From the IMG/VR virus record IMGVR_UViG_3300017705_000602: DNA of 64,000 nucleotides, one strand, 5' to 3'. Position 1 is the stretch's first letter. Each line of letters starts with the position of its first letter. The translations under genes and the position numbers were made by a program. Positions 6,894 through 41,036 of this stretch are shown piece by piece. Source of the DNA: a virus (taxonomy: Duplodnaviria > Heunggongvirae > Uroviricota > Caudoviricetes). The notes beneath the pieces are model-generated. The model saw nothing but the letters and a program-made list of their open reading frames with translations. It did not search any database and had not been told where the DNA came from.

Positions 6894-6952
6894 GCCCTGG
6901 TAGCTCAGTTGGATTAGAGCATGCCGCTACGAACGGTAAGGCCGCAGGTTCA
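6894..6952 (+). pseudogene. tRNA-Arg (anticodon ACG) 5' fragment, truncated inside the T-loop at the HNH gene boundary
   Basis: intact acceptor 5' strand, D-arm, anticodon arm tgccg-ctACGaa-cggta and T-stem 5' strand gcagg-ttca; sequence then runs into tgataaatatatgcATG; no matching 3' acceptor found. Confidence 0.55.
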
Positions 6953-6966
6953 TGATAAATATATGC

Positions 6967-7644
6967 ATGGACTATACAAAACATTATGACGCCCTTATCG
7001 AACGTGCAAAACAGCGTGTGTTAACATGCTATACAGAAAACCATCATGTGATACCGAAATGCTTAGGTGGCAACGATACCAAAGAAAACATCGTGATGTT
7101 ACTACCGGAAGAACACTATGTAGCGCATCAGCTATTGGTAAAAATTTATCCTGGTAGTAAACAGCTTTTGTATGCGGCACTAATGATGACAGTTTCATCG
7201 GCAAGTGTTAAGCGTAAAAATAAAGCTTATAAATGGTTAAAAGAAAAATACCACTTGGTGTGCAAAGAAAGAACCGGTGTAAAAAATCCATCGTATGGTA
7301 AACCTTGGTATCACAATCCAGAAAATGGCGAATCGGGTAAATTTGAAGAAGATCAGCAACCCGTTGGATGGGTTAGAGGTCGAGTAAAGAAACCTAAAAG
7401 ATATTGCATTAAATGCAACACAGAAATTAATACATCTGTTGCTAAATGGTGCAACGAATGTAGACCAAAGAAAACTAAGAGTGTAATACGATCGGCTAAA
7501 CAAAAAGAAAAGTATTCTGAAGCTGATAAAATTAAAGCACTTAAAGAAAATAACGGTAATATAAGGCAGGCACTTTATAGCTTAGGTTTAAACGACAGCG
7601 GCTGGCATTATCGTAAAATGAAAGATTTATTAAGTAAGATTTGA
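6967..7644 (+). CDS. HNH homing endonuclease (paralog of 19865..20563)
   Basis: HHVIPKCLGGNDTKENIVML..EEHYVAH HNH motif, C-terminal CxxC..CxxC; start chosen by alignment with the paralog (MDYTKHYD / MDYKKLYY). Confidence 0.8.
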   Translation: MDYTKHYDALIERAKQRVLTCYTENHHVIPKCLGGNDTKENIVMLLPEEHYVAHQLLVKIYPGSKQLLYAALMMTVSSASVKRKNKAYKWLKEKYHLVCKERTGVKNPSYGKPWYHNPENGESGKFEEDQQPVGWVRGRVKKPKRYCIKCNTEINTSVAKWCNECRPKKTKSVIRSAKQKEKYSEADKIKALKENNGNIRQALYSLGLNDSGWHYRKMKDLLSKI

Positions 7645-7822: not shown

Positions 7823-8038
7823 ATGGATATCGAAGAGAAAACATTACTCAAGCTGTTTGAAATGAGGCACGGAGTATTAGCAAACAATTTTCACACTGAT
7901 ATCGAATATAACGACCCGACCATGATGGACCGTGCAGTAGGCGTAAATGTTTACAAAAACGGTGATTTTGTTTGGTCAGAGTCGGCAGTCAGTTTGTTGC
8001 TTTGGCACACTGGTAAACAATTAGGTATAAAAGAATGA
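7823..8038 (+). CDS. small hypothetical protein
   Basis: start moved to first ATG after tRNA-Phe; stop overlaps downstream start. Confidence 0.4.
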   Translation: MDIEEKTLLKLFEMRHGVLANNFHTDIEYNDPTMMDRAVGVNVYKNGDFVWSESAVSLLLWHTGKQLGIKE

Positions 8039-8481
8039 AACTGAGTTATAAAGATTGCGGCGTTATCGGATTTACTTGTAGTACATTTGATTTATTGCAT
8101 GCAGGTCATGTAGCAATGTTAGAAGAAGCAAAACGACAATGCGACTTCTTGATCGTAGGATTACAAAATGATCCGACTTTAGACAGACCAGTGCAAAAGA
8201 ATCCTCCTGTCCAAAGCTTAGTTGAACGCCAGATACAGTTAAGCGCAGTCAAGTTTGTTGACGATCTAGTGGTCTATAACACCGAAAAGGATCTTGAAGA
8301 TCTGTTGCTAACATTGCCAATTGCGGTTAGAATACTAGGTGTCGAATACGAGGACAAAGAATTCACTGGTAGAAAAATATGCCAGGACAAAGGAATCAAG
8401 TTGTTCTTTAACACACGAGATCACAGCTTTAGTAGCACCAGTTTAAGACAACGTGTAGCAGACTCGCAAAACGCAAAATAA
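8035..8481 (+). CDS. cytidylyltransferase-fold nucleotidyltransferase, RfaE/HldE domain II-like (heptose-1-phosphate adenylyltransferase family)
   Basis: HIGH motif FTCSTFDLLHAGHV; downstream LIVGLQNDPTLDRPVQKNPPVQSLVERQ mirrors HldE-II LIVAVNSD...RPVNPLEQR. Confidence 0.7.
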   Translation: MKLSYKDCGVIGFTCSTFDLLHAGHVAMLEEAKRQCDFLIVGLQNDPTLDRPVQKNPPVQSLVERQIQLSAVKFVDDLVVYNTEKDLEDLLLTLPIAVRILGVEYEDKEFTGRKICQDKGIKLFFNTRDHSFSSTSLRQRVADSQNAK

Positions 8482-8547: not shown

Positions 8548-8814
8548 ATGCGAGTATTTACAGCAGTAATAGACGAATATATTGACGTATTTGGCGAATG
8601 CCATGCTGTTAGAAACATGGTCCCGAATCAAGAAAGCACAACTCAAGATTTAGAAACCAGCTATCGTGAAGTTGCACAGCGCATTGCTGATACCAATTCG
8701 CATCGTGAGTTGATCAGTGTTACTATTTCCGCATACCGAGATAACAGCCTGGGTTGCTTTACGTATTGGCAAGGTGCTATGAGAACATACAAAATAGAAG
8801 AATTAAAAGGTTGA
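8548..8814 (+). CDS. hypothetical protein
   Basis: 88-aa ORF. Confidence 0.4.
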   Translation: MRVFTAVIDEYIDVFGECHAVRNMVPNQESTTQDLETSYREVAQRIADTNSHRELISVTISAYRDNSLGCFTYWQGAMRTYKIEELKG

Positions 8815-9001
8815 CAATATAAACACATTCATGTATAGTGTGTTCATATTGTAAAGTTTTAAGACACAAATAGTTCCTATGAAAATTCACTTTTAAGATA
8901 AAATACTATTCGTCTTACCGTATCAAGCGCCAGTGGCACACCAAAGTTGTATACCACCTTTAATAGCAGGTATGTAATGCCACTGGTAGCAATAAAAATT
9001 T

Positions 9002-9362: not shown

Positions 9363-9911
9363 ATGGGCTATCGTGTACGTCTTGGTCGCTTTCCGAAAGT
9401 TGATCGTAAACGTTATATGCACCTTAAATCAGAAGCAGAAGCTTACGAATGGTTTGAACAGCACGACACAGAACATGCACATTATCGTCCACGAGAACTG
9501 CAAGAGCTTGTTGAACTTGGCAAGTATGTCGACTATAAAAAGCAAGGTCTCGATGTAGAAAAGTTTTACGAGTTCGATCTTGAGGAAAACGATTTTATTA
9601 TTGTTAACCGAGAGTTTTTATTGCACATCATCGAAGAGTATCGAACAAATACAGTAGTCTGGTATACCGAACTGCTAGACGAAGTTGCAAGCGGCGACGT
9701 TGCACAAGTTAGTTTTCATCTCAAAAACAAAATAAATGAATGGGATAATAAGTATTACAGCAATTTAAAGACAGAAGAACACGACACAGGCAAGCACGAA
9801 GATGGTCGATTAACACGATCGTGGAAGTTTGAATATGCAGTGTTCAATTTACTGTTTATATTACACACATTCGACTGGGACAATGATTATTTAATCTACA
9901 GCGGATGGTAA
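9363..9911 (+). CDS. hypothetical protein
   Basis: 182-aa ORF with AAGGAATGAATAATG RBS context between tRNA-Lys and tRNA-Ser. Confidence 0.5.
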   Translation: MGYRVRLGRFPKVDRKRYMHLKSEAEAYEWFEQHDTEHAHYRPRELQELVELGKYVDYKKQGLDVEKFYEFDLEENDFIIVNREFLLHIIEEYRTNTVVWYTELLDEVASGDVAQVSFHLKNKINEWDNKYYSNLKTEEHDTGKHEDGRLTRSWKFEYAVFNLLFILHTFDWDNDYLIYSGW

Positions 9912-9917
9912 GAACAA

Positions 9918-10008
9918 GGTGAGTTGGCAGAGTTGGTCTATTGCGCTTGACTGCTAATCAAGAGTCCTGTAACCGGGGCACGTGGGTTCGAATCCCACAC
10001 TCACCGCC
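9918..10008 (+). tRNA. tRNA-Ser (anticodon GCT), class II
   Basis: acceptor ggtgagt/actcacc, anticodon stem cttga/tcaag, loop ctGCTaa, long variable arm, T-loop ttcgaat, CCA. Confidence 0.8.
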
Positions 10009-10026
10009 AAACACAAGGATTACAAC

Positions 10027-11160
10027 GTGTCAAAACGAATAGTAGTAAAAGTTGGCTCTACATTGTTAGCAAACGAAGAAACACTTAGAATGCGATTTGC
10101 ATTTATGTGGGGTTTGCTACGTGATATAGCCGATCTACAAAATCAAGGTTACGATGTAGTACTAATGAGTTCTGGTGCAGTTGCACTAGGTAGAGAAATA
10201 CTCAAAACAGATGACAACAGTATTGCAACCAAACAAGCCGCATCGGCTTGTGGGCAACCAGTATTACTGCATGCTTACAGATCGATTGCACAAGAAATGA
10301 GCAAAGATATTGCTCAAGTGTTGGTTACCATGAGCGAAATGGAATCGCAAGATCATTTTGATGATATCAGCAACACAATTGAACGTTTGTTTGATTATCC
10401 TGTTATTCCTATTGTTAACGAAAACGATACCACAGCAACAAAAGATTTGCGCGTTGGCGACAATGACAGGCTAGCGGCAAAAGTTGCCGAAATGATTGGT
10501 GCAGAACACTTGGTTATACTTACCAGTATTGACGGTTTATACGATCGAAATCCAAGTGATCCAGACGCACAGTTTATCGATGTGCTTGATGATGTTAGTC
10601 AGTATATTGACGGCACAGAAGAAACAAACGGCCTGGGCAGCGGTGGCATGAAAACTAAATTGCAAGCCGCAAACATGGCACAGCAATGCAATTGTACCAC
10701 ACATATTGCCGAAGGCATCATAGATGCACCGGTGTCAAGTGTTATTAATAATACACGAGTGCATACTAAATGTTTGCCGATTGACCAGACAGCATCCAGG
10801 CAAGAACTTTGGTTAAGTAACCGATTGCGAGTAGCATGTTCGATTATTGTTCCGAAACAAGTTGCACAATCTCTTGCAGACACAAAGCAAAATATCGTGT
10901 ATAATGATATTGCTTCACGCTTTGGCGCATTCAGCAGAGATGATATTTTACATGTGTTTAGCGAAGATGGTGTTGAATTAGCACGTGGGTATGCAGAATG
11001 TTCAAGTGATGATCTTGAACACTTGCAACACATGCGCAACCAGTTTGATTCAGAATACGGTGCAGACGCATTGATAATCAAACAAGACCGCATGATGCTA
11101 GTGGAGTCCAGTCAGTTAAGCTGGGACGCACCGGACATTGAAACAACACAATCTGTTTAA
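10027..11160 (+). CDS. glutamate 5-kinase (ProB)-like amino-acid-kinase-family protein with C-terminal PUA domain
   Basis: VVKVGSTLL, VLMSSGAVALGRE, PIVNENDTTATKDLRVGDNDRLAA, GSGGMKTKLQAAN match ProB blocks; C-terminal region matches the ProB PUA domain. GTG start at 10027 chosen (AAGGA 8 nt upstream) because the track start at 9982 lies inside tRNA-Ser. Confidence 0.75.
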   Translation: MSKRIVVKVGSTLLANEETLRMRFAFMWGLLRDIADLQNQGYDVVLMSSGAVALGREILKTDDNSIATKQAASACGQPVLLHAYRSIAQEMSKDIAQVLVTMSEMESQDHFDDISNTIERLFDYPVIPIVNENDTTATKDLRVGDNDRLAAKVAEMIGAEHLVILTSIDGLYDRNPSDPDAQFIDVLDDVSQYIDGTEETNGLGSGGMKTKLQAANMAQQCNCTTHIAEGIIDAPVSSVINNTRVHTKCLPIDQTASRQELWLSNRLRVACSIIVPKQVAQSLADTKQNIVYNDIASRFGAFSRDDILHVFSEDGVELARGYAECSSDDLEHLQHMRNQFDSEYGADALIIKQDRMMLVESSQLSWDAPDIETTQSV

Positions 11161-11170
11161 GGAAATAAAC

Positions 11171-11404
11171 ATGTGCGATAAAAAAATTACAATTTCGGTT
11201 TACCTTGACACAGGTGTAGTTAGAGAATACGATGTATCCAATCATGCAAGTGCTAGAGAGCACGTTGCAGAAATCGTAAAGACAGGTTACCGACATATTG
11301 ACGGAGACAAATTAACACACGTACCTCCGCATAAAATTAGTAAAGTTTGTGCTCAAGGCCCGGGTATTGATACTAAATATCCAGACCGTGTAAGAGGCAC
11401 GTAG
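11171..11404 (+). CDS. small hypothetical protein
   Basis: ATG at 11171 with AAGGA RBS; 77 aa. Confidence 0.45.
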   Translation: MCDKKITISVYLDTGVVREYDVSNHASAREHVAEIVKTGYRHIDGDKLTHVPPHKISKVCAQGPGIDTKYPDRVRGT

Positions 11405-11576: not shown

Positions 11577-11651
11577 TAGAGGTATAGCCAAGCGGTTACG
11601 GCATCGGACTTTGAATTCGACATCGCTGGTTCGAATCCAGCTACCTCTGCC
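11577..11651 (+). tRNA. tRNA-Gln (anticodon TTG)
   Basis: acceptor agaggta/tacctct perfect, anticodon stem tcgga/ttcga, loop ctTTGaa, T-arm gctgg ttcgaat ccagc, CCA. Confidence 0.7.
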
Positions 11652-11808
11652 ACATTTAAGCTGTAATTGTTAGCCGTCCAGAGAGGATAGGGGCAGGCAT
11701 CTGAACTTGTTTGATTGCGCATACACAAGAAGGAAGGATGTCGACGTTTATAAGCATTGGCCCGCTTTTAAACAACTTTACAGCTTAAACCTATTTTGAG
11801 GAAATGTT

Positions 11809-12800: not shown

Positions 12801-13079
12801 ATGTTTTGTAAGAATTGTGCAACAGAAATAAGCGACCGAGCAAGGTCATGCCCTAAATGCGGACATCCAGTTTGCGAAGAAGGTGCCAAGTCAAAAGTTG
12901 CTTTTGTTATATTGGCGCTACTAGTAGGCGGCTTTGGCATTCACCGTATGTATATCGGTGATTGGTTGCTTGGTATTATATACCTTGTTTTTTGTTGGAC
13001 ATTTATTCCAGCTTTAGTTGCGTTAATAGAAGCTATAGTTATCGGATTTAGAAAAGACGATCCACGCTTCGAATATTAA
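12801..13079 (+). CDS. zinc-ribbon + TM2-domain membrane protein
   Basis: N-terminal CxxC..CxxC ribbon (CKNC..CPKC) followed by two hydrophobic helices with G..G.HRMYIGD pattern typical of TM2 domain. Confidence 0.6.
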   Translation: MFCKNCATEISDRARSCPKCGHPVCEEGAKSKVAFVILALLVGGFGIHRMYIGDWLLGIIYLVFCWTFIPALVALIEAIVIGFRKDDPRFEY

Positions 13080-14919: not shown

Positions 14920-15654
14920 ATGAAATTTAAAAACATTTTGTTGGGCACAGTAATAGCACTTGGCTTTTCGTCAGTTGCTAATGCGGGCCTAATAACAACA
15001 ATAGATGACTTTTCCGATGACCAAGGTCCGCTAACTGTTATGGCAGGCGGTATGGACTGGAGCTCAGTACTCGGTGACATGATTGGCGGCGAACGTGATT
15101 TAATGATCACAAACATTGTCGATGATAATAACAGAGGGACAACTATCGAAATTACAAACGATAAGTTCTTCTTTAGTGCCGGTTCGGGTGCCGAGTCAAT
15201 GTTTACTATGCAATGGGACGGCATTGATAACTCAATGGACGTTAACACAACTGGGCTAGGCGGAATCAACTTTTTTGAATCTGGCAACTCGGTAGTTTCG
15301 TTTGTTACTGCAATCGTTGAGTCCGACTTAAATGCTTGGTTCGACATCACGTTTTGGTCTGGTGCTAACGGCACTGCTGAAACAGTAGAACTACCAATTC
15401 CAGGTGTTGCATTCCCAGGTCGCGATGCGTTCTTTACCACTAACGAATTTGCAAATACCGATTTTACAAATATCGGCGCAATACAAGTTCGCGGTAACAT
15501 TATATCTCCTGACACTGGGTTAATGGTTCGGTCGTACGACTTGCAACTAGATTCAGTAACAGCAGTACCAGAGCCAGCAATGGCAAGTTTGCTTGGTTTA
15601 GGTCTTGCAGGAATTGCATTAGCAGGTCGCAGAAGAAAAAAACTAGTAGGATAA
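14920..15654 (+). CDS. secreted protein with C-terminal PEP-CTERM sorting signal
   Basis: signal peptide MKFKNILLGTVIALGFSSVANA; C-terminus VPEPAMASLLGLGLAGIALAGRRRKK = VPEP + hydrophobic helix + Arg/Lys cluster; AAGGA RBS. Confidence 0.7.
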   Translation: MKFKNILLGTVIALGFSSVANAGLITTIDDFSDDQGPLTVMAGGMDWSSVLGDMIGGERDLMITNIVDDNNRGTTIEITNDKFFFSAGSGAESMFTMQWDGIDNSMDVNTTGLGGINFFESGNSVVSFVTAIVESDLNAWFDITFWSGANGTAETVELPIPGVAFPGRDAFFTTNEFANTDFTNIGAIQVRGNIISPDTGLMVRSYDLQLDSVTAVPEPAMASLLGLGLAGIALAGRRRKKLVG

Positions 15655-18451: not shown

Positions 18452-18808
18452 ATGCGTCTGTGGCGTTGGGGGTATGATCAGTTTAGAACTGGTTATAGAA
18501 TATTCACAATTGCTTATATAAAGGCGCTTAGATGGGATATATATTTGTTTCATTATCCCGAAGGGTCGTTTATACCTAAGCATAAAGATCCTTCAAAGTA
18601 CGGCAAGCATTACCGTTTTAATATAACTCTTAAACGACCTGAACAGGGCGGCGAGTTTATTTGCAACAATGTAGTGTTTAGATGGTGGAGATTTTGTTTG
18701 TTTAGAGCAGATGCAAATTACCACCGCGTAACTCGAATTGAAAAAGGTAGCCGTTGGATACTAAGCTTCGGTTTTACATTTAAGCATGACAAAAGTTCAA
18801 ATCGGTAA
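18452..18808 (+). CDS. small 2OG-Fe(II) oxygenase-like protein (paralog of 4609..4941)
   Basis: FIPKHKDPSKYGKHYRFNITLK HxD...H pattern shared with the 4609 paralog. Confidence 0.5.
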   Translation: MRLWRWGYDQFRTGYRIFTIAYIKALRWDIYLFHYPEGSFIPKHKDPSKYGKHYRFNITLKRPEQGGEFICNNVVFRWWRFCLFRADANYHRVTRIEKGSRWILSFGFTFKHDKSSNR

Positions 18809-19415
18809 TAACAGCATGGAACTTCCGGAAGGCCCAATTGGGCTTTCCTTTTCTACCGGTCTCGATAGTACAATTTTGTTGTACTTGCTTGCACAGCAAG
18901 TAAAGTCGGATTTACATTTGTTTACTATAAGTGTTCATTCTCGAGACCTACATGCAATCAAGTATTCGGCAGATATACTCAATTGGGTAATTGCACAAAC
19001 AGGTAAAACAAACATTTATCTGCATGTGACTGTAAAGCAAGATGCCGACGATGCATTAGGCAATGCAGGATTATACAAGACACCGGCTGAATATTTAGCA
19101 AGAGGCTTAATCAACTGCGTAGTAACTGGACATAACAGTTTACCGCCCGATGAAATCGATCTAGGATGGCCTGCAAAAGATTCGCACGATTACAAAATTC
19201 GAACTCCGCACGAACAGCGCGATATCGAATTTGCAACAAATTGGTTCAGTCCATTGACAAACTGCAACAAGAAACAGATTGCAGAACTTTTTTTAGAAAA
19301 TGGTGCATTAGCACTTGCGAAAAAGACTAATAGCTGTTATACTTCGTATAACGAAGAGCCATGTAAGCAGTGCTTTGCTTGTAAAGAAAAATTCTGGGGC
19401 TTTGGGTTTTACTAA
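18786..19415 (+). CDS. QueC-like PP-loop ATP pyrophosphatase, paralog 1 (degenerate PP-loop)
   Basis: N-terminal LSFSTGLDSTILLY (variant of SGGxDS) and C-terminal Zn-ribbon CYTSYNEEPCKQCFACKEKFWGFGF matching QueC TCY..GCGxCxxCxxRxxGF. Confidence 0.6.
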   Translation: MTKVQIGNNSMELPEGPIGLSFSTGLDSTILLYLLAQQVKSDLHLFTISVHSRDLHAIKYSADILNWVIAQTGKTNIYLHVTVKQDADDALGNAGLYKTPAEYLARGLINCVVTGHNSLPPDEIDLGWPAKDSHDYKIRTPHEQRDIEFATNWFSPLTNCNKKQIAELFLENGALALAKKTNSCYTSYNEEPCKQCFACKEKFWGFGFY

Positions 19416-19677: not shown

Positions 19678-19808
19678 GCGGGCGTAGCTCAGTTGGATTA
19701 GAGCAACGGTTGTTTAAATGTCCCCTGTGCCGACACCGGTCTTCTAAACCGGAAGCATAAAAAACGTTGGGTTGGAGCTGGGAGGTTCGACTCCTCCAGG
19801 GGATGCCA
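19678..19808 (+). other. composite tRNA-like region upstream of HNH gene
   Basis: 19678-19710 = normal tRNA 5' part (acceptor gcgggcg, ta, D-arm gctc agttggatta gagc). Further on: perfect hairpin ccggt-ctTCTaa-accgg, perfect T-arm ggagg ttcgact cctcc, then aggggat-g-CCA (matches gtcccct at 19718). No canonical cloverleaf. Confidence 0.35.
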
Positions 19809-19864
19809 TTTTTAAAATCTGTGATAAATACTTTTACTTTAATGTTAGAAGTAGAAGAATTATC

Positions 19865-20563
19865 ATGGATTATAAGAAATTATACTATTCGATTATTGAA
19901 AAGCGACAAAGGTGTACACCTACTGGATATACTGAAAAACATCATATTGTCCCAAGGTCGTTAGGTGGTACTAATGACAAAGAAAATTTAGTTAAGTTAA
20001 CTGCTAGAGAGCATTTTCTTTGTCATTACTTGCTTGCAAAAATGTATAGCAAAGAATCAGTTGAATGGTATAAAATGAATCATGCATTTTTAATGATGAA
20101 GTCATCGTCGGCAACACAACAACGGTACTTTAATTCGAAACTGTATGAAAGCTTAAAAGTGAATATGTCGTTTGTGATGTCAGAATCACAAACGGGCAAC
20201 AGGAACTCTCAGTACGGAAAGCGATGGATACACTCTGTGGAGTTACAGAAATCTGTTAAAATTCCTAAGGATGATCCTTTACCTGACAACTGGAAAGAAG
20301 GCAGAAGAGTTAACTGGGATCTTGTTAAAACATGCCCACAATGCGGTACAGAGTTTTTAAAGAGTTTAAAGAAGTACTGTTCGGATGATTGCAAGGATAA
20401 GGCAACTAATCCTTTCCGTGGTAAAGAACAAGAGTTTTTAGAATTGTATGCGGAGTACCAGAGCATGAACAAAGCCTTAAAGGCAATGGGATACCCTGGT
20501 GCAATTAGTCATTATTACCGTTGGGCGAAATCGGTTATAGGTAATAACAATTCAAATGTTTGA
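19865..20563 (+). CDS. HNH homing endonuclease (paralog of 6967..7644)
   Basis: HHIVPRSLGGTNDKENLVKL..REHFLCH motif; C-terminal CPQCGT..C..C zinc finger. Confidence 0.8.
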   Translation: MDYKKLYYSIIEKRQRCTPTGYTEKHHIVPRSLGGTNDKENLVKLTAREHFLCHYLLAKMYSKESVEWYKMNHAFLMMKSSSATQQRYFNSKLYESLKVNMSFVMSESQTGNRNSQYGKRWIHSVELQKSVKIPKDDPLPDNWKEGRRVNWDLVKTCPQCGTEFLKSLKKYCSDDCKDKATNPFRGKEQEFLELYAEYQSMNKALKAMGYPGAISHYYRWAKSVIGNNNSNV

Positions 20564-20659: not shown

Positions 20660-20743
20660 GTGGGTGCGCATCGGCGAGCAAAGCGGTCTCCAAAACCGTG
20701 GCCTTAATCGGCCTTGAGGGTTCGAATCCTTCCACCCGCGCCA
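20660..20743 (+). tRNA. tRNA with CCA anticodon (Trp-type), atypical 84 nt with extra variable hairpin
   Basis: acceptor gtgggtg/cacccgc (G-U at pos 2), anticodon stem gcggt/accgt, loop ctCCAaa, variable hairpin ggcc-ttaatc-ggcc, T-arm gaggg ttcgaat ccttc, CCA; D-arm not canonical. Confidence 0.5.
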
Positions 20744-22342: not shown

Positions 22343-23172
22343 AAACGATACCTGCAGACGAGCCGGTGCTGGTAGACGATATTGCAGTTATGACATACAA
22401 CGAATCTCGTGTTATGTCGCAGTATTGGCGTGCCGGTGAATCGTTATGGAAAGGTGTTATGCCATGTAACAGTTTCCAGCTTTTGCACGAAAACAGTATA
22501 CGCCAAACAGTATTCGGGTACTTTGTTAATCAGTGTTTTCGATGCTCAGTAGATGAAATTGCAGATGACGATATCACAGTTAACAATTATTGGCTTGAAA
22601 TACTACCTAAGATTTTGTGGTTATGCGAAGAATGGTTAACCAAAAAACAATTTGTTGAACCCCTTATGGCGCACTGGAATCCCCGAATACAAAAGAATGT
22701 GGTACATCCTGGAATGTCACGTGCAAGTGTGATGCATCTGTTTCCGCAAGGACTTACTGAATTCTCAGTGGTGTATTTTAATACCGGCGGTGGATACGAT
22801 CGCAACACAATGAACAAGCTGAGAAAAATTACAATAGACGATTTAATCGACGATGGCTGGAACACAATGACATTTGTCGCCGACCACGAATCTCTTATTC
22901 CGCATTTTTCAAAAAATATTGAAGCAAATGCAAACTACAAAAAAGATTACCATCGTAAGATAATCGAACGGCTATCGTCAATGTCGATAGAAACAAATAC
23001 TAAAGACACTATATTTACAGATCCGCTGTCAGCTTGGATTAAAAGAAACGGTAACGTACAAATTATTTTCACCGATCAAGAACCGGGTCCGTTAGCACAA
23101 GCAAGGGCATTGTTGTGTGCATTGTTAGGAAAAACGTACACAGACCATGAAGTAAAAGTATCATGCAATTAG
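22327..23172 (+). CDS. hypothetical protein
   Basis: 281-aa from ATG 22327 (AAGGACG RBS); immediately upstream of and overlapping the radical SAM gene. Confidence 0.5.
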   Translation: MEPEMKTIPADEPVLVDDIAVMTYNESRVMSQYWRAGESLWKGVMPCNSFQLLHENSIRQTVFGYFVNQCFRCSVDEIADDDITVNNYWLEILPKILWLCEEWLTKKQFVEPLMAHWNPRIQKNVVHPGMSRASVMHLFPQGLTEFSVVYFNTGGGYDRNTMNKLRKITIDDLIDDGWNTMTFVADHESLIPHFSKNIEANANYKKDYHRKIIERLSSMSIETNTKDTIFTDPLSAWIKRNGNVQIIFTDQEPGPLAQARALLCALLGKTYTDHEVKVSCN

Positions 23173-24128
23173 AGCGAGCAGTAATCGAAATTGCAGGAGG
23201 TTGCAATTACACCTGCGGAATGTGTCCTCAGAGCACAGGACGTGGCAAAGACTTTACCAAAAAGATGTCGGTATCTCATTTTGCTCAACTGCTCGACGAG
23301 ATTGTGGACAAGTATGGCAGCCCTCAGATTAATTTAGAAGGCTCAGGTGAGCCCACTATCAATCGAGATTTACCTTTGTATATACGAGAATGCACAAAGC
23401 GCAATCTTAAAAGTTTCATGTATACAAATGGTGCAAGGTTTAAAGGTAAACTGATGACCGATTCCATTGACGCCGGATTGTCTTTTGTTAGATTCAGTTG
23501 CATTGGCTACAATCGTGAGACTTATAAAAAATGGATGAGTCGTAACAACTTCGATTTGCTGATAAAAAATGCTATTGCTACACAGCAATACATACAGCAG
23601 ACTGAATCAAACTGCACAGTGAGCAGTTATCACCTAATACTAGACAACGCTAACATCGAGTACGAGATCGAGCAGTATCGGCGTAACTTTATTGAGCAAG
23701 TCGAATCAGTTGCGTATATCTGGAAAATGCACAACTGGAGCGGAAACATACAGCCAATATATCTGAGAGATACTTCCGATCGCAGAACATGCGGACGTCC
23801 ATTTGCACCCGAAATAACCATACGAGCCGGTGGCCTAGATGGTAAATACGGAGCAGTAACACCTTGTTGTCAAACTATGGGTCCACCGCACGAAGCCGAA
23901 AGCGTGCTAGGGCATACTTCTGTAAACACAATTGAAGAAATATTTACAGGAGAAAAATATGAGCAATTACGAAAAGCTCATAGACAACAAGACTTTGATA
24001 GTGTATCATATTGCAAAGATTGTGATTTCTTGTATGAAGACCCTGAGGTTCTAGTATGGAGTAACGATACTAGTGCAACAACAAATCACATGCTTGGAAC
24101 AAATTTTAATTTAGAAGATTACAAATAA
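23163..24128 (+). CDS. radical SAM enzyme with C-terminal SPASM/twitch-like Cys cluster
   Basis: N-terminal CNYTCGMC (Cx3Cx2C) in GGCNYTCGMCPQS; C-terminal Cys-rich region TCGRP...TPCCQTMG...SYCKDCDF. Confidence 0.7.
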   Translation: MQLERAVIEIAGGCNYTCGMCPQSTGRGKDFTKKMSVSHFAQLLDEIVDKYGSPQINLEGSGEPTINRDLPLYIRECTKRNLKSFMYTNGARFKGKLMTDSIDAGLSFVRFSCIGYNRETYKKWMSRNNFDLLIKNAIATQQYIQQTESNCTVSSYHLILDNANIEYEIEQYRRNFIEQVESVAYIWKMHNWSGNIQPIYLRDTSDRRTCGRPFAPEITIRAGGLDGKYGAVTPCCQTMGPPHEAESVLGHTSVNTIEEIFTGEKYEQLRKAHRQQDFDSVSYCKDCDFLYEDPEVLVWSNDTSATTNHMLGTNFNLEDYK

Positions 24129-24328: not shown

Positions 24329-24994
24329 ATGCGAATTGAACTGCTCGGAAATGATTATATTGACATACCCAACGATACCAGTGTAGGTGTCGGATTTAGC
24401 GGTGGTGTTGATTCTACTTTGTTATTGTACATAATGTTGCTATACTCGCCGCATACTGTATTTCCGCTTACTATAACAGTTAACAATCGTTATCATCGCC
24501 ATAAGCAAGTGGCATCGGAAGTTCTTGAACTGTGCTGTAATGAAACAGGCAACCACGAAGTTATACATTCGGCAATACATTGCAACGATATTGATTTAGA
24601 AAATGGCACTAACCCTACTGCATTAAAACAAAACTGGTTTTTAAAGTCTGGCATGATCAGCACTTTGTTTCTTGGTACTAACCAGTTACCACCAGCTGGT
24701 CATATACACACTGAAGACTTTCGACACAATCACACTGACGAGTACTATCGGCGAGAACCCGGTGTGTTAAAAGCTACTAGTACCCACGGTGGTGCATTTC
24801 AGTTGCCACTCATTAATTATGACAAACGACAAATCTGCGAGCTGTACAGAAAGTTTGGTATATCAGATGAAATATACAAGCGCACATGGTCTTGCTCGAC
24901 TATACTCAGTGACAAGGATTGGAATGTAAATAGACATTGTGGGAAATGCGGCCCTTGTCACGAACGTATTTTTGGGTTTGGAAAAATAGAATAG
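24329..24994 (+). CDS. QueC-like 7-cyano-7-deazaguanine synthase family PP-loop ATPase, paralog 2
   Basis: canonical PP-loop VGFSGGVDSTLLLY; C-terminus WSCSTILSD..HCGKCGPCHERIFGFG matches QueC zinc motif. Confidence 0.7.
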   Translation: MRIELLGNDYIDIPNDTSVGVGFSGGVDSTLLLYIMLLYSPHTVFPLTITVNNRYHRHKQVASEVLELCCNETGNHEVIHSAIHCNDIDLENGTNPTALKQNWFLKSGMISTLFLGTNQLPPAGHIHTEDFRHNHTDEYYRREPGVLKATSTHGGAFQLPLINYDKRQICELYRKFGISDEIYKRTWSCSTILSDKDWNVNRHCGKCGPCHERIFGFGKIE

Positions 24995-27466: not shown

Positions 27467-27634
27467 ATGAAAACCAAACGATACAAATGTATTATATGCG
27501 AATATATCTACGACGAATCAATCGGTATACCCGATGAGGGCATTCCGCCCGGCACAAGATTTGAAGATATTCCTGATGATTGGTCATGCCCGCTGTGCGG
27601 AATTGATAAAACTTACTTCGAGGAAATAACATGA
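27467..27634 (+). CDS. rubredoxin (55 aa)
   Basis: CxxC...CPxCG pairs in [40 protein letters not shown] with conserved Tyr/Asp/Trp aromatic core; ATGA-coupled to DHFR. Confidence 0.75.
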
Positions 27635-28143
27635 TCACGCTTATAGCCGCTATAGGTACCAATGGCGAAATCGGTAAAGATAACAGTTTACTTTGGGACA
27701 TACCCGAAGAAATGAAAGTGTTTATCAAGCACACTAAAGGTAAAACTGTGTTAATGGGCCGCAAGACATTCGAATCAATTGGTAGTAAGCCTTTGCCAAA
27801 TCGAACAAACATTGTGATTTCAAGAACTATGCCCGAAACCAACGGTGTACATGTTTATAGCAATATTGCAGATGCAATTAAAGATCACCCGGATGTAGTG
27901 GTCATGGGCGGAGAACAAATATACCGCGAGTGCTTACCGATAGCCGATCAAATGATCATATCGCATGTGTGCATGAGCTTTCCTGATGCCGATTCTCATT
28001 TTCCTGTATGTAATCAGTTGCTTGAAAAATCAGGTGAATTGTTGCACGATGGATCACCTTTTTTCTCAACGTATAAATATACGAAAGGAAAAGGAGAAAA
28101 CTCATGGGATTCAGATTCAGCAGACGAAGCGAAGAAAGACTAG
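27631..28143 (+). CDS. frd: dihydrofolate reductase
   Basis: [51 protein letters not shown] matches DHFR N-terminal blocks. Confidence 0.85.
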
Positions 28144-28502
28144 AAGGTGTTCACCCCGATCTAGTTGATGTTGCACATCGCGCAATCGAACTAACACCGT
28201 ATGACTTTGGTATTACCCAAGGCGTAAGAACAATAGAAGAACAAAGACGTTTTGTCGAAGAAGGCAAGTCTACTACAATGAACAGCAGGCACCTGATACA
28301 AGACGACGGATACAGCCATGCAATTGATATTGCAGTATATGTAGACGGTTCGATAACGTGGGAAGTGCCTTACTACAGAAAAGTTGTACAAGCATTTTTT
28401 ACTGCCGCTATTGAAAAGAATGTACAAATCAATTCGGGTGTGCTGTGGCGTACATTTGTCGACGGTCCGCACATTGAACTAAACTACAGGTACTATGAAT
28501 AA
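28104..28502 (+). CDS. peptidase M15-family L-alanyl-D-glutamate peptidase-type endolysin
   Basis: NSRHLIQDDGYSHAIDIAV (SxHxxGxAxD) and DGPHIEL second His motif. Confidence 0.65.
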   Translation: MGFRFSRRSEERLEGVHPDLVDVAHRAIELTPYDFGITQGVRTIEEQRRFVEEGKSTTMNSRHLIQDDGYSHAIDIAVYVDGSITWEVPYYRKVVQAFFTAAIEKNVQINSGVLWRTFVDGPHIELNYRYYE

Positions 28503-29103
28503 TATATACACCTGTAAGCTATTCGAGCCGCACGAAGCACAACGACTGTTAGACGATATTACATCGGAGTTTTACGGCAAATTTGTAAGATCAAGACTGT
28601 ACGACACATCTTCAGGCAACATGCATTTTAAAGAGATTGCCGATGCCCGAAGATCGTGGGAGCAAGTGTATCATAACCATACTCGGTTTGCTTGGATAAA
28701 AGCTAGACTAAACAATCATGTAAGAACTGCGCTTGATCAGTTCGGTCTTACTATGCCTGCTATACACTATCCGCAAGGTCTTCGATTTTTAAAATACGAC
28801 TCGGCAGAAACGGGCTTTCAGAATTGGCACACGGACAAGTCTAAACAATCGCGTATTCTTACTTGTGTTGTACAATTAACAGACCCTGACGAATATCAAG
28901 GTGCAAGACTCGAATTTCAATCTCCGATACTGTCGAGGCAGGTGCCAGTTCAGCAAGGCAGTTTAATTATATTTCCATCGGAGCAGATTCATCGTGTGTC
29001 TGAATGCATATCGGGAATTAGATACTCGTTGATTGTTTGGGCCGAGACAGAAGATACAGCATTACCTCCAGGGTACACAGATGACACTACTGAAAAGAAC
29101 TGA
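28495..29103 (+). CDS. 2OG-Fe(II) oxygenase, prolyl-4-hydroxylase-like
   Basis: HxD in FQNWHTDKS, distal His IHRVSE and 2OG-binding RYSL. Confidence 0.65.
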   Translation: MNNIYTCKLFEPHEAQRLLDDITSEFYGKFVRSRLYDTSSGNMHFKEIADARRSWEQVYHNHTRFAWIKARLNNHVRTALDQFGLTMPAIHYPQGLRFLKYDSAETGFQNWHTDKSKQSRILTCVVQLTDPDEYQGARLEFQSPILSRQVPVQQGSLIIFPSEQIHRVSECISGIRYSLIVWAETEDTALPPGYTDDTTEKN

Positions 29104-29611
29104 TTGGGAATTTCTAGCACCGCTTGCATTAAAAGAAGCAATGTCTATTATCAACAAGCACGGTGCGTTTAACGGGCAGATTGGACTTACACATCGTCCT
29201 GGAACACCCGAAGGCGATAAACTGATTGATGCAACAGGCTCGTTGTATGATTACGACTCGGGTCAGTTTGTTGCAAAGGAATCAGACTTTACTGAATTCA
29301 ATAGTGCTTTTGTAGGTACTTACTTGCACGAAATTTACAGCACTATCGGAAACATCGGTCGTATGAGAATCATGATCATGGATGGCCCTACTGCATACAC
29401 CATTCATCGCGATGTGACTACTCGTTACCACTTAGCTCTCAAAACCAATCCGTTTTGTTTTTTTGTGTTCCCTAACCAAAACGAACAAATACACATTCCG
29501 CAGGACAATAACATATACGAAGTTGACACACGAGAATATCACACGTTCTTGAATGGCACTAGAGCAACACGTATTCATTTAGTAATGGATAATTTGTTGT
29601 CGTATGAGTAA
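29081..29611 (+). CDS. cupin-type aspartyl/asparaginyl beta-hydroxylase-like protein
   Basis: TAYTIHRDVTTRYHLALKTNP resembles the AspH-family His-x-Asp...His core; start uncertain (29033 or 29081). Confidence 0.45.
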   Translation: MTLLKRTDWEFLAPLALKEAMSIINKHGAFNGQIGLTHRPGTPEGDKLIDATGSLYDYDSGQFVAKESDFTEFNSAFVGTYLHEIYSTIGNIGRMRIMIMDGPTAYTIHRDVTTRYHLALKTNPFCFFVFPNQNEQIHIPQDNNIYEVDTREYHTFLNGTRATRIHLVMDNLLSYE

Positions 29612-31489: not shown

Positions 31490-31525
31490 ATGCAATGGCA
31501 ATTATGCATAACAAAGGAAAATCGC

Positions 31526-32527
31526 ATGTCATCGAAAGAAATTACTCCAGGTCGCATTATAAAATGGATCGTGTGGGCAATACTAGCTATTATTGCTTTT
31601 AGTGCTCTAATGGGATCGTTTTATATTAACTCAGAATACGAGCGCACAGTTGAAACACGCTTAGGCGAAATCAACGGTGATGTAACCGGTCCTGGGTTAC
31701 AGTTTAAAGCACCGTTTATCGATTCTGCTCACACAGCAGACATTCGCATAGACGAAATCAACTACCCGGGCGAAGTAACTGCATCGTACGATGGTCAGAC
31801 AATCAACATTGATATTACTATTAACCACCAGATACTTGAAGCGTCTGTGCAAAAGTTATATTCGGACTTTGGTTCAAACTATAACTACAGCGATCGTATC
31901 TTGCGCAAGATGGCAATTGATCGTATTAAAGGACTGATCGGTACATACAAAATTGAAGAGTTCATGCCTAATCGTGAACAGATTAGACAAGAAGCACTAA
32001 CAGTTGTTAAAGCAGAAGCCAACAAGTACGGTGTTAACATACTGGACATTCAGTTATCGAACTTTGAATTTGACCCACGCTTTAAAACACGTTTACAAGA
32101 AGTTGCTGATGCAAGAGCGCGAGCGTCAAAAGAAGAACAGCGAGCACGTGAAGCCGGCTTTGCTGCCGAGAAGCGTATCGAAGTCGAACGTGGTGAAGCA
32201 GAATCTAAAAAGCTTGCTGCCGATGCAAACGCTCACAAAATTCGTGTAGAGTCGGAACAAAAAGCGGCAGCTATACAGCGCGAAGGTGAAGCACAAGCGG
32301 CATCTGAACTTGCTAAAGGTACTGCAAAAGCCGAAGCAATTAAAGCACAGCTTGAAGCACTTGAACGAGGCGGGCAGAATTTGGTTGAGTTAACCAAAGC
32401 CGAAGCAATGAAAAATTGGGACGGTGTATACAGCCCGGACACAGTTATCAGTTCAGGCGGTACAGGCCAGCCAGGTTTTATACCTTTCATGAACTACAAT
32501 GAACTGTTGAAGCCAAAGAAAAACTAA
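31526..32527 (+). CDS. SPFH/band-7 (prohibitin/HflKC-like) membrane protein
   Basis: N-terminal TM then band-7 core (GLQFKAPFIDS...) and long Ala/Glu/Lys-rich coiled coil; AAAGGAAAATCGCATG RBS. Confidence 0.7.
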   Translation: MSSKEITPGRIIKWIVWAILAIIAFSALMGSFYINSEYERTVETRLGEINGDVTGPGLQFKAPFIDSAHTADIRIDEINYPGEVTASYDGQTINIDITINHQILEASVQKLYSDFGSNYNYSDRILRKMAIDRIKGLIGTYKIEEFMPNREQIRQEALTVVKAEANKYGVNILDIQLSNFEFDPRFKTRLQEVADARARASKEEQRAREAGFAAEKRIEVERGEAESKKLAADANAHKIRVESEQKAAAIQREGEAQAASELAKGTAKAEAIKAQLEALERGGQNLVELTKAEAMKNWDGVYSPDTVISSGGTGQPGFIPFMNYNELLKPKKN

Positions 32528-36764: not shown

Positions 36765-36820
36765 TAAAGCTGTTATCTGTGCTACAATAACATGTGATCA
36801 ACTATTATAAGGCGCACACT

Positions 36821-37834
36821 ATGTACCGTATCGGCTTTGCATGCAAATTTACGCATCACGACCAGAGTTTAAAAAAGAAGAAACTCGAAGAAATCGAACG
36901 TCCGTATCGTCCTCGCATAACCACAGCACGCTGGCTCGATCAGCAAGATCAGCATGTGGCTGAACAGCGACTTAAAGATTTGATTACTCACAACGTCGAA
37001 GCAACTGCGCGACTGGTTGCATGGGTCGGTCAGTACGAACGCGAGCTTCGTATGTTGCGTATTGGTAGCGACTTATTGCCCATGTACACACATCCAAAGT
37101 GGAAGAATTTCTACACCGACAACCCATCTTTTATGGCCGGCATACAAGAACAGTTTAGACGCATCGGCATTGTTGCTCGCGAAAAAGATGTGCGCCTTTC
37201 GTTTCATCCGGGTCAGTTTACTGTGCTTGCTAGCGACAGACCAGAAGTTGTTGAGAACTCAATTGAAGAATTCGAGTACCATGCAGACATGCTACGCTGG
37301 ATGGGGTACGGTCGTACATTCCAAGATGCCAAGTGCAACGTACACATCAGCGGCAAGCTAGGTCCACAAGGCATTATCGATATACTGCCGCGTCTCAGCG
37401 AAGTTGCTCGCAATGTGATCACAATCGAGAATGACGAAATGTCATACGGTCTTGATGCATCGCTTGAGCTAGCTGATCATCTAGCTCTTGTCATAGATTG
37501 CCATCATCACTGGGTACGCACAGGCGAATACTTACAGCCCGACGACGAGCGTGTTAAGGCAGTTATTGCGTCATGGCGCGGCAAGCGACCGACTATGCAC
37601 TATTCATTATCACGCGAGGACTTGCTGGTCGATCATTGCCGTGATACTAAACCCGACATGGATAAATTACTCGAGCAAGGTTACAAAAAACAAAAGTTGC
37701 GTGCTCACTCCGACTACATGTGGAATCGAGAATGCAACAAGTGGGCAGCCGGCTTCTTAGGTAACTTCGATATCATGGTCGAGTCCAAGGCTAAGAATTT
37801 GGCATCGTTTAAGTTGTACAACGAGATTAAATGA
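36821..37834 (+). CDS. UV DNA damage endonuclease (UvdE/UVDE family)
   Basis: MYRIGFACKF, RMLRIGSDLLP, ITIENDE, IDCHHH match UVDE conserved blocks. Confidence 0.75.
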   Translation: MYRIGFACKFTHHDQSLKKKKLEEIERPYRPRITTARWLDQQDQHVAEQRLKDLITHNVEATARLVAWVGQYERELRMLRIGSDLLPMYTHPKWKNFYTDNPSFMAGIQEQFRRIGIVAREKDVRLSFHPGQFTVLASDRPEVVENSIEEFEYHADMLRWMGYGRTFQDAKCNVHISGKLGPQGIIDILPRLSEVARNVITIENDEMSYGLDASLELADHLALVIDCHHHWVRTGEYLQPDDERVKAVIASWRGKRPTMHYSLSREDLLVDHCRDTKPDMDKLLEQGYKKQKLRAHSDYMWNRECNKWAAGFLGNFDIMVESKAKNLASFKLYNEIK

Positions 37835-38688
37835 TTACAGAAAAACACTTTTGGGTCTCCGACTTTAACCGTGCGTCGAATTATGCAAAGCAATATCCTG
37901 ACATTAGCAAGATATTCGATTACCCAAGCGCAACATGGTTAACCGGTAGATCCAAATACAAAAAAATTATCGATAGATCTATTAAGCGTACTTTACGTAG
38001 AGCCGCTCCTTATTTGCCTACGTTTGTGCTTTATGCAATACCAAATAGAGATCTGGGGCATCATTCTGCAGGCGGTCTTGCATCTGACGAAGAATACTTT
38101 CAGTTTGTTAAACGTATTGCACAAGGCATCGGGAATAAAAGTCCTGTGGTGATCGTTGAACCGGATGCATTACCACATTCAACATTGCTTGACAACAAGC
38201 AACAAAAGCACAGAATTTCGCTTATTAAAAAAGCTGTAAAAATTCTAGCTAACAATTGTGATGCAATTGTTTACATTGACATTGGTCATTCCAATTGGTT
38301 ATCACCATCGGATTCGTACGACTTGTTAATGCAAGCAGGAATTGCACAAGCAAGAGGATTTTCAGTTAACGTGTCCAATTATCAATCAACGCACGATTCG
38401 TTGTTGTGGGGCACCAGAATTGCAAGCGGGTTCGAAGACGAAAAATACTTTATTGTTGACACCAGCCGAAACGGACAAGGTCCGCTTGACGACTGCTGGT
38501 GCAATCCGCCAGGCAGAGGCTTAGGTGAAACACCAACGCATGAAACACCTAGTCGCTTTTGTGATGCGTACATGTGGATTAAAGTTCCGGGTGAGTCAGA
38601 CGGCAAATGCAACGGTGGACCTCATGCAGGGAAATTTTGGCCTGAGCAAGCAGTTGAACTTGTGCAGAACTCTCCGTTTATTCGATAA
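37831..38688 (+). CDS. glycoside hydrolase family 6-like protein (cellulase/cellobiohydrolase fold), no signal peptide
   Basis: GH6 blocks VLYAIPNRDLGHHSAGG, VIVEPDAL, IDIGHSNWL, NVSNY, VDTSRNG, CDAYMWIKVPGESDG; ATGA-coupled to uvdE. Confidence 0.7.
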   Translation: MITEKHFWVSDFNRASNYAKQYPDISKIFDYPSATWLTGRSKYKKIIDRSIKRTLRRAAPYLPTFVLYAIPNRDLGHHSAGGLASDEEYFQFVKRIAQGIGNKSPVVIVEPDALPHSTLLDNKQQKHRISLIKKAVKILANNCDAIVYIDIGHSNWLSPSDSYDLLMQAGIAQARGFSVNVSNYQSTHDSLLWGTRIASGFEDEKYFIVDTSRNGQGPLDDCWCNPPGRGLGETPTHETPSRFCDAYMWIKVPGESDGKCNGGPHAGKFWPEQAVELVQNSPFIR

Positions 38689-40313: not shown

Positions 40314-41036
40314 ATGCAAGTCGGCGATACTAGGTCGTTGATTTTTGACCTTGACGGTACTTTGTGCGAAAGCACAAAATGTTTGCTCCCCGAAATGCAA
40401 CACATGCTAAAGTTGTTATCTCAGGATTATGATATCTGGGTAACAACCGGAACATCGCATCAAAAGCTGTTAACGCAAATTCCAGCTGATGTATTGTCCT
40501 GTTTAACTGGTGTGTATTGCAGTTTAGGAACCGAGTACTACAACAACGGACAGCTGGTGTCAAGATTGGATGCTGAGTTTTCACAAAGTCTCCTACTTGA
40601 ACTCCAAGCTGTGTTTGAAGCATGCGAGTTTGCACACAAACACGAGTGCGCAATAACGTATAGGAATGCCATGATAAACTTCTCGGTGTTAACTCCGGGT
40701 TCATCGGACACATTGAGAAAACAGTTTGCAACGTGGGACCACGAAACCAACTTTAGGAATCGTATTGTGATGCATTTAAAAAACATGTATCCGCAGTACA
40801 ACTTTGCGGCAGGCGGCATGGTCAGCATTGATATTACACAGACCGGAGTTGACAAATCTGTTATTGTTGATAACGAAAAGTTAAAAACGGACGTGATATT
40901 CTTTGGTGATAAAGCCGAACCGTTGGGTAATGATTATCCGGTTGCTCAAGCAATAGTTGAGCGCAAGATAGGCAAGTACTACTGTGTTGAATCTCCTGAG
41001 CATACATTAAGTTTACTCAAAAAAATACGCGCCTAG
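40314..41036 (+). CDS. eukaryotic-type phosphomannomutase (HAD superfamily, PMM family)
   Basis: DxDGT motif LIFDLDGTL; YRNAMINFSVLTPGSS, VSIDITQTGVDKS and IFFGDKAEPLGNDYP align with PMM blocks FRNGMLNVSPIGRS / ISFDVFPEGWDK / IHFFGNETSPGGNDF. Confidence 0.75.
   Translation: MQVGDTRSLIFDLDGTLCESTKCLLPEMQHMLKLLSQDYDIWVTTGTSHQKLLTQIPADVLSCLTGVYCSLGTEYYNNGQLVSRLDAEFSQSLLLELQAVFEACEFAHKHECAITYRNAMINFSVLTPGSSDTLRKQFATWDHETNFRNRIVMHLKNMYPQYNFAAGGMVSIDITQTGVDKSVIVDNEKLKTDVIFFGDKAEPLGNDYPVAQAIVERKIGKYYCVESPEHTLSLLKKIRA

Follow-up and report, generated by a model that had tools for sequence, protein, structure and literature searches.

Why should a phage carry a gene of proline synthesis inside its transfer RNA (tRNA) array, and what would its product do there? 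The question is raised by the virus record IMGVR_UViG_3300017705_000602, of which a stretch of 64,000 nucleotides (hereafter the window) was analysed. At positions 10027-11160 of its plus strand, the window carries an open reading frame (ORF) whose product resembles ProB, the glutamate 5-kinase (G5K; EC 2.7.2.11) of bacteria. An earlier reading of the same DNA (the original prediction) described a full-length ProB-like kinase with a C-terminal PUA domain and proposed for it a repurposed role, such as RNA-associated phosphorylation or metabolic reprogramming. In this study, we believe that the phage ProB is probably a functional glutamate 5-kinase, which was captured and kept as an auxiliary metabolic gene for the production of proline by the host.

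Identification of the phage ProB

The gene, its ribosome-binding site and its catalytic domain are as follows.

10027-11160, plus strand: proB-like gene encoding a 377-aa glutamate 5-kinase, with a GTG start and a TAA stop at 11158-11160 (ORF read)
10015-10019, plus strand: Shine-Dalgarno-like AAGGA, 7 nt 5' of the GTG start (sequence read)
10033-10710, plus strand: amino-acid-kinase catalytic domain, residues 3-228 (PF00696)

The ORF is 1,134 nt long and its coordinates are exact. A longer mechanical ORF starting at 9982 was rejected because it would overlap the tRNA-Ser at 9918-10009. The GTG start at 10027 is also that of the JGI gene call, which gives the same 377-aa product, and two sister phage genes start likewise. 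A protein (P0001) encoded on a JGI contig of 319,623 bp was identical to the window ProB.

The results of profile searches showed that the NCBIfam model TIGR01027 (proB) was the best family, with 284.5 bits against a cutoff of 186. P5CS came next, and the window protein fell far under the family's own cutoff for each of ArgB, PyrH, carbamate kinase, IPK and P5CS. Both Pfam domains named in the original prediction scored above their gathering scores: AA_kinase (PF00696) matched residues 3-228 with E = 1.1e-37, and PUA (PF01472) matched residues 273-335 with a marginal 27.1 bits against 24.8. The Escherichia coli enzyme (PDB 2j5t), to which the phage protein is about 30% identical, was matched over residues 2-345 with E = 1.2e-46, and phrog_15591, a PHROG without an assigned function, matched at 9e-47. 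An AlphaFold2 (AF2) model, which was built from an alignment of 33 sequences (pLDDT 84, pTM 0.85), was superposed by Foldseek on 2j5t across both domains with TM scores of 0.80/0.85, and this superposition also supports the PUA domain. By every sequence and structure test of membership, the gene product belongs to the ProB family (TIGR01027 / EC 2.7.2.11). Because the ORF, profile, PDB, fold and tRNA results agree, the description of a two-domain ProB at 10027-11160 was confirmed, and neither of the two outcomes that the original prediction had named as refuting it was observed.

Active site

The active-site residues were compared with a table of 149 diverse ProB representatives (pairwise identity no higher than 50%). 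In E. coli numbering, the phage protein keeps K10, G12, S50, G51, A52, N134, N136, D137, G147, D148, N149, D150, G212, G213 and K217, and each of these catalytic or substrate residues was 98-100% conserved among the 149 ProBs. The catalytic Lys/Lys/Asp, whose absence would have spoken against the original prediction, are present as K8, K211 and D147 of the window protein, aligned to K10, K217 and D150. The glutamate/proline pocket (S50-G51-A52, N134, D137, D148 and N149) was identical in the window protein and in two other phage lineages, and all residues that bind the alpha-amino and alpha-carboxyl groups of free glutamate are preserved. More generally, 118 close cellular homologues share 122 columns with a conservation of 97% or more, and the phage protein retains 109 of these. 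A change of D170 to S, considered as the loss of a catalytic residue, was rejected, for the segment 'LTSIDGLYDR' is the consensus across the whole cellular clade. With the active site read in this way, we believe that the gene most likely encodes a working glutamate 5-kinase.

Conservation and selection among phages

The window is phage DNA: it carries a tail sheath gene at 51670-54273 and a T4-type large terminase (TerL) gene at 60101-61663, and a homologue of T4 gp15 lies immediately upstream of it. TerL shared 64% identity with the terminase of the PA5oct group of Pseudomonas jumbo phages, and the source is a marine jumbo myophage of about 320 kb related to PA5oct. In the window, ARAGORN found 23 tRNAs, and the embedding of proB in a tRNA array held as predicted. 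The immediate surroundings of the gene are as follows.

9363-9911, plus strand: 182-aa ORF of unknown function, upstream of tRNA-Ser and syntenic in all related phage loci
9918-10009, plus strand: tRNA-Ser(GCT), ending 18 nt before the proB start and conserved in all related phage loci (ARAGORN)
11171-11404, plus strand: 77-aa ORF (phrog_14177, unknown function), 10 nt after the proB stop and kept 3' of proB in related phages
11578-11652, plus strand: tRNA-Gln(TTG), which is conserved and bounds the proB block on its downstream side (ARAGORN)

The gene was found in three diverged phage lineages, namely the window type, the P0002 type (83% identical) and the P0003 type (78% identical), whose loci come from independent assemblies of JGI, TARA, ENA or Logan data. 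The order tRNA-Ser(GCT)/ProB/small ORF/tRNA-Gln(TTG) was complete in five of six related loci (L002-L004 and L023-L025); in L025, the sixth, the short contig breaks off within proB, and only the tRNA-Ser/ProB junction is seen. Between the phage lineages, the synonymous divergence (dS) was 1.0-1.8 and the overall ratio of nonsynonymous to synonymous divergence (dN/dS) was 0.09-0.14, with 0.04-0.07 in the kinase domain and 0.13-0.28 in the PUA domain and tail. The GC content of the gene (41.6%) was close to that of the window (40.6%), against 51-58% in the bacterial sister contig.

These data bear on the idea that proB is a passenger without a role for the phage, whether as newly acquired host DNA, as a chimera of the assembly or as a decaying moron. 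Such cases do exist, since other ProB records labelled as phage are host chromosome within prophages or mislabelled contigs. Here, however, the same gene in the same tRNA context recurs in independent assemblies and in three lineages, purifying selection is strong, the GC content is fully ameliorated, and phage structural genes stand on both sides. A recent transfer or chimera was rejected on the independent assemblies, the GC amelioration and the dN/dS values, and a passenger in any form is highly improbable. The phage proB has long resided in the phage lineage under selection. As would be expected for a phage auxiliary metabolic gene, it lies in a true phage genome, is host-derived, is conserved in relatives and is under purifying selection.

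A separate observation concerns P0122, a protein of 279 aa that matches the phage ProB with 68% identity over residues 2-195 and then continues in unrelated low-complexity sequence. It has the phage-type 107-118 helix but retains E143, and probably represents a fourth lineage of phage-like type, affected by a frameshift or by an error of assembly.

Origin of the gene and the search for proA and proC

The closest cellular ProBs, those of the marine Proteobacteria Maricaulis, Kordiimonas, Hyphomonas and Woodsholea, were 49-55% identical. By neighbour joining, the phage proteins formed a monophyletic group in all 200 bootstraps, and P0005/P0006 were their sister group in 195 of the 200; P0006 is 99% identical to the ProB of Luminiphilus metagenome-assembled genomes (Gammaproteobacteria). 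The gene came from marine Proteobacteria, and was probably captured there by an ancestor of the phage lineage.

In Luminiphilus, Kordiimonas, Glycocaulis and Maricaulis, proB adjoins proC and/or proA. ProA and ProC were searched for in the phage with Maricaulis protein queries, which recovered the bacterial positive controls. Neither protein gave a signal in the window (64 kb), in its flanks (about 8.7 kb upstream and about 2 kb downstream) or in 81 kb of partly overlapping phage-derived loci. The usual company of ProB, which is typical rather than defining, is thus missing from the window, its flanks and the related phage loci.

Several side observations were made on the bacterial loci. In L006/L007, L010-L012 and L016, proB stands divergently beside proC, with or without proA, and a sodium:solute symporter of the SSF family was recorded beside the Maricaulis and Luminiphilus clusters. 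These cellular proB/proC clusters may form a marine, possibly osmoadaptive, proline cluster. The cellular clade has a conserved C-terminal 'HLxWDxP' tail that is missing from E. coli ProB, and Luminiphilus, a gammaproteobacterium, carries a ProB type that is otherwise alphaproteobacterial.

Proposed role in infection

Glutamate 5-kinase is the committed step of proline synthesis and is feedback-inhibited by proline. According to our proposal, proB would be transcribed together with the surrounding tRNA array, and tRNA processing would free a proB mRNA that retains the AAGGA ribosome-binding site. The predicted enzyme would phosphorylate the gamma-carboxyl group of free L-glutamate with ATP to give gamma-glutamyl phosphate. 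Because the phage took proB alone, without the neighbouring proC or proA, the product would have to diffuse to the ProA and ProC of the host, which would complete the synthesis of proline. Because the kinase is the committed, feedback-controlled step, an additional phage copy would be expected to lift the flux at the very point where the host throttles it. With lower confidence, we suggest that the phage enzyme may also work under altered, probably weakened, proline feedback and/or oligomerisation, as discussed below. The likely benefit would be a supply of proline, as a building block of protein and/or as a compatible solute, while a phage of about 320 kb goes through its long infection in seawater.

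Earlier studies make such a division of labour feasible. For example, ProBs only 35-43% identical to that of E. coli, one of them without a PUA domain, could replace E. coli proB; channelling between ProB and ProA was not needed, and gamma-glutamyl phosphate, whose half-life is about 320 ms, reached ProA by diffusion (Newton et al., PMC11573504). Because foreign ProBs substitute without channelling, a lone phage ProB could plug into the ProA and ProC of its host. Host proB and proA were up-regulated in one pelagiphage infection of SAR11 (PMC12753301), and this rise makes a higher flux through the proline pathway plausible in the infection of marine bacteria by phages.

An active kinase might also serve another end. 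Its product could lead by way of glutamate-5-semialdehyde to ornithine, arginine and polyamines for the packaging of a very large genome, or gamma-glutamyl phosphate could be handed to another phage enzyme. The solitary state of proB, with no proA or proC across roughly 75 kb seen, would fit this idea, and so would the wealth of unusual accessory enzymes with unassigned substrates in the window (QueC-like ATPases, a radical SAM enzyme and 2-oxoglutarate (2OG) oxygenases). On the other hand, no candidate partner enzyme adjoins proB, whose conserved neighbours are small ORFs of unknown function, and in the closest cellular relatives proB is clustered with the proline genes proC and proA and with a transporter of the SSF family. 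Gamma-glutamyl phosphate lasts about 0.3 s, and the abundant host ProA is therefore favoured as its sink (PMC11573504). We consider such a diversion unlikely, and prefer the production of proline by way of the host enzymes.

Some points weigh against this preference. No feature of the window accounts for proline in particular being what limits this phage. The ProA/ProC search covered roughly 75 kb of the 319-kb genome; a proA or proC in the other 245 kb or so would change the view that the kinase feeds host enzymes, not the view that it makes proline. If the proposal is right, proline synthesis is one more of the host pathways for which large marine phages seem to carry adjusting genes of their own, and the locus would illustrate cleanly how a phage can take no more of a pathway than its rate-controlling step.

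PUA domain and the tRNA array

A different role was suggested by the PUA domain and by the position of the gene. PUA is the usual C-terminal domain of most, although not all, bacterial ProBs. In the window protein it is the following feature.

10843-11031, plus strand: PUA domain, residues 273-335 (PF01472); folded, acidic and evolving faster than the kinase domain

The region had a pLDDT of about 90 in the AF2 model, its isoelectric point (pI) is 4.7 with a net charge of -6, and the pI of the whole protein is 4.6. In the E. coli enzyme, PUA is required for filaments and supports proline feedback (bioRxiv 10.1101/2024.09.19.614007).

It could be assumed that the PUA domain recruits the kinase to RNA, so that the enzyme acts on tRNA or aminoacyl-tRNA (for example Glu-tRNA) or otherwise serves the tRNA array. 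In favour of this, the phage protein does have the PUA fold, and its gene lies 18 nt past tRNA-Ser and upstream of tRNA-Gln, a placement that is conserved in relatives. PUA is nevertheless the default architecture of ProB, and the roles found for it in G5K so far are filamentation and the support of feedback (bioRxiv 10.1101/2024.09.19.614007; PMC11573504). The acidity of the domain and of the whole protein also speaks against the binding of RNA, as does its weaker constraint (omega 0.13-0.28, against 0.04-0.07 in the kinase domain). The intact pocket for a free alpha-carboxylate and an alpha-amino group suits free rather than esterified glutamate. In TruB/Cbf5 and ArcTGT, the PUA domain is joined to an RNA-modifying domain, whereas in the phage ProB it is joined to a small-molecule kinase; compared with these RNA-binding proteins, the phage protein has neither a basic PUA surface nor an RNA-modifying domain. 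The tRNAs of the window are, moreover, interspersed with unrelated genes as well (a homing endonuclease, a cytidylyltransferase, a TM2 protein and a methyltransferase). The placement of proB between two tRNAs reflects the vertical inheritance of the block in a tRNA-rich accessory region. We regard an RNA-directed function as extremely improbable. As for the repurposed role in the original prediction, metabolic reprogramming is the best-supported reading, whereas RNA-associated phosphorylation is unsupported in view of the acidic PUA domain, the default architecture and the intact glutamate pocket.

Feedback and interdomain elements

Substitutions and deletions of the phage lineage were found in three elements.

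10336-10374, plus strand: helix 'EMESQDHFDDISN', residues 104-116 (E. coli 107-119), with D107E, R111Q, R113H, N116D and R118S (alignments)
10420-10464, plus strand: regulatory loop, residues 132-146 (E. coli E135-N149), with E143 changed to D (alignments and AF2 model)
11044-11157, plus strand: C-terminal segment and tail, with a 3-residue deletion and the 'LSWDAP' motif (alignments)

Studies of the E. coli enzyme have shown what these elements do. The substitution D107N or E143A abolishes proline feedback (PMC5418603). Proline occupies the glutamate pocket and closes the E135-N149 loop, the closed proline-bound loop is stabilised by E135, E143 and D148, and K145 touches Y352 and Y354 of the PUA domain of the partner chain; the double change Y352A/Y354A raised the proline needed for inhibition 15-fold (bioRxiv 10.1101/2024.09.19.614007). 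In the filament form, R111, F114, N116, R118 and D119 pack on W268 and the PUA domain (bioRxiv 10.1101/2024.09.19.614007).

Columns were counted as phage-specific when all three phage lineages differed from a cellular consensus of at least 90%. The changes E143D, R111Q, R113H, N116D/E and R118S and the deletions at 60-68 and L350-G351 occurred in none of 117 members of the cellular clade, and no diverse representative (n=149) paired even two of these signature changes, except the phage-like fragment P0122. The replacement residues were identical in the three phage lineages, except at N116 (D or E). Position 143 is E in 137 and D in 5 of the 149 diverse ProBs, and the confidence of the AF2 model is low at residues 140-144. 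The 3-residue deletion in the tail removes the conserved L350-G351 immediately ahead of the equivalent of Y352, which itself varies across the phages (Y/Q/H), and the clade-specific 'LSWDAP' motif is retained in the phage tail. The loop at 60-68 of the phage ProBs has lost two residues. Phage-specific changes were enriched in the feedback and interdomain elements (Fisher p of about 0.01-0.02 in a post hoc test).

Since fixed, phage-specific changes map to the elements of proline feedback in E. coli, altered regulation is plausible, and we tentatively suggest that the phage ProB may have altered, probably weaker, proline feedback and/or oligomerisation. We hold this to be rather doubtful because the test was post hoc, the changes at the classical sites are conservative and the proline-binding residues are kept. 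Specifically, both classical feedback positions carry exchanges between acidic residues (D to E and E to D), D107E is common to the phage and the Luminiphilus ProB and thus occurs in the bacterial sister lineage as well, D137, N134, G51 and A52 are retained, and the enrichment test was chosen after the data had been seen. Surfaces and loops also outpace catalytic cores in divergence anyway.

In its full form, the suggestion would be of a naturally deregulated G5K, catalytically intact, insensitive to proline and perhaps non-filamentous, by which one phage gene overrides the control of the host; this too is conceivable but on balance doubtful. If feedback is truly weakened, the protein would be a natural template for strains that overproduce proline, and phage metabolic genes would be able to evolve past host allosteric control. 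It would then represent a feedback-resistant allele of amino-acid biosynthesis evolved by a virus, at the positions that bioengineers mutate, and infection would force the overproduction of proline.

Comparison with known systems

The phage ProB shares the two-domain architecture, the catalytic and substrate residues and the fold (TM 0.80) with the E. coli G5K (PDB 2j5t/8zpj). It differs in being encoded by a phage without a proA or obg neighbour, in its low identity of about 30%, and in its fixed changes in the 107-118 helix, at E143 and at L350-G351. With the marine proteobacterial ProBs (Luminiphilus, Kordiimonas, Maricaulis, Hyphomonas and Glycocaulis) it shares 'LTSIDGLYDR' and an 'L(S/P)W(D/E)xP' tail, whereas their proB stands beside proC and/or proA at a GC content of 51-58% (Luminiphilus-lineage contig) and the phage proB stands alone at 41.6%. 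Compared with feedback-resistant G5K alleles (E. coli proB74 D107N and E143A, and the G149 variants of Corynebacterium glutamicum), the phage protein also departs at D107 (to E) and E143 (to D), but its changes are natural and conservative, and D107E recurs in the bacterial sister lineage.

Putative G5K auxiliary genes have been reported in the temperate Pseudomonas syringae phages Aurca01 and Cruim01, for which proline synthesis and osmoprotection were proposed (PMC11256456). The enzyme annotation and the proposed role are the same as for the window ProB. In contrast, those phages are temperate and their genes are near host copies, whereas the window gene belongs to a tRNA-rich myophage of about 320 kb and is deeply diverged and conserved across phage lineages.

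When the region was compared at the nucleotide level with 50,697 phage records, no match was obtained. A protein search of the same records gave 20 matches, all below 60% identity, and no ProB match in the PA5oct-group phages. Two of the 20 were inspected, Streptococcus phiZJ20091101-1 and 'Acinetobacter phage MD-2021a'; both are host chromosome with proBAC or obg-proB and were rejected as precedents. IMG/VR was scanned twice, with the single protein and with an alignment as query, and no relative came up within the limited reach of the automatically chosen motifs, and a fold search of BFVD returned nothing at E <= 1e-3. Because the inspected database ProBs are host DNA and BFVD and IMG/VR gave no counterpart, a diverged, lineage-conserved ProB in a jumbo phage of lytic type is uncommon, in agreement with the earlier view that this gene is unusual for a phage. 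The enzyme family, the architecture and the concept of auxiliary genes are all established, and the locus is no new kind of system.

The accessory region and its neighbouring genes

The first 47 kb or so of the window is an accessory region in which tRNAs are mixed with many host-like genes. These include a cytidylyltransferase, a methyltransferase, two QueC-like PP-loop ATPases, a radical SAM/SPASM enzyme, DHFR, 2OG-Fe(II) oxygenases, an SPFH protein, UvdE, a GH6 glycosyl hydrolase, a phosphomannomutase, a sugar-nucleotide dehydrogenase and homing endonucleases. Because of this mixture, ProB is one accessory gene among many and no special partner of the tRNAs. Pfam and PHROGs gave no tie to proline metabolism for the neighbouring ORFs, and the 182-aa ORF at 9363-9911 had no match in either. 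One promoter was noted.

8811-8839, plus strand: near-consensus sigma-70-like promoter (TTGACA-17-TATAGT), upstream of tRNA-Asp

It is a candidate start for a transcript through the tRNAs and proB, and should be taken as a lead only. A promoter and terminator scan gave counts no higher than in shuffled sequence, and only the site at 8811 was notable.

The tRNA array has several further features. Homing/HNH endonuclease genes lie around it at 6952-7644 and 19772-20563 (plus strand), and just outside the window, on its upstream side, there is a gene for a GIY-YIG endonuclease (L020 5744-6256); such endonuclease genes fit with a region of high gene turnover. A small membrane-associated protein with a zinc ribbon and a TM2 domain is encoded within the array at 12801-13079 (plus strand), and a cytidylyltransferase-like protein at 8035-8481 (plus strand) matches a PHROG of heptose-1-phosphate adenylyltransferase. 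A predicted tRNA-Trp(CCA) of 84 nt at 20660-20743 (plus strand) has its anticodon at position 31; it is atypical and may be mis-delimited or carry an insertion.

At 18786-19415, 23163-24128 and 24329-24994 (plus strand), two paralogous QueC-like PP-loop ATPases stand on either side of the radical SAM/SPASM enzyme, with tRNA-Trp, tRNA-Gly and tRNA-Cys interspersed in this stretch. These genes may form a module for 7-deazaguanine-type or other nucleobase or peptide modification. The DHFR gene at 27631-28143 (plus strand) is followed by a 2OG-Fe(II) oxygenase (PF13640) at 28495-29103 and an overlapping ORF resembling Asp/Arg hydroxylases at 29033-29611; a link of these oxygenases to proline, such as hydroxylation, is pure speculation.

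A 244-aa ORF at 14920-15654 (plus strand) ends in a PEP-CTERM sorting motif (E = 2.7e-5). In Gram-negative bacteria this signal is normally read by a host exosortase, and the motif may therefore hint at the host, for which Halieaceae and other marine Gammaproteobacteria are candidates. A membrane-associated SPFH/Band 7 protein (E = 4e-31) is encoded at 31490-32527 (plus strand). The genes at 40314-41036 and 46009-46797 (plus strand) encode a eukaryotic-type phosphomannomutase and a short protein (262 aa) resembling UDP-glucose/GDP-mannose dehydrogenases, respectively, and are grouped with the cytidylyltransferase-like gene at 8035-8481 as sugar-nucleotide genes. Directly after the gene of the UV-damage endonuclease UvdE at 36794-37834, a 285-aa ORF at 37831-38688 (plus strand) gave a match to glycosyl hydrolase family 6 (cellulase/cellobiohydrolase, E = 4.8e-57), an enzyme unusual for a phage.

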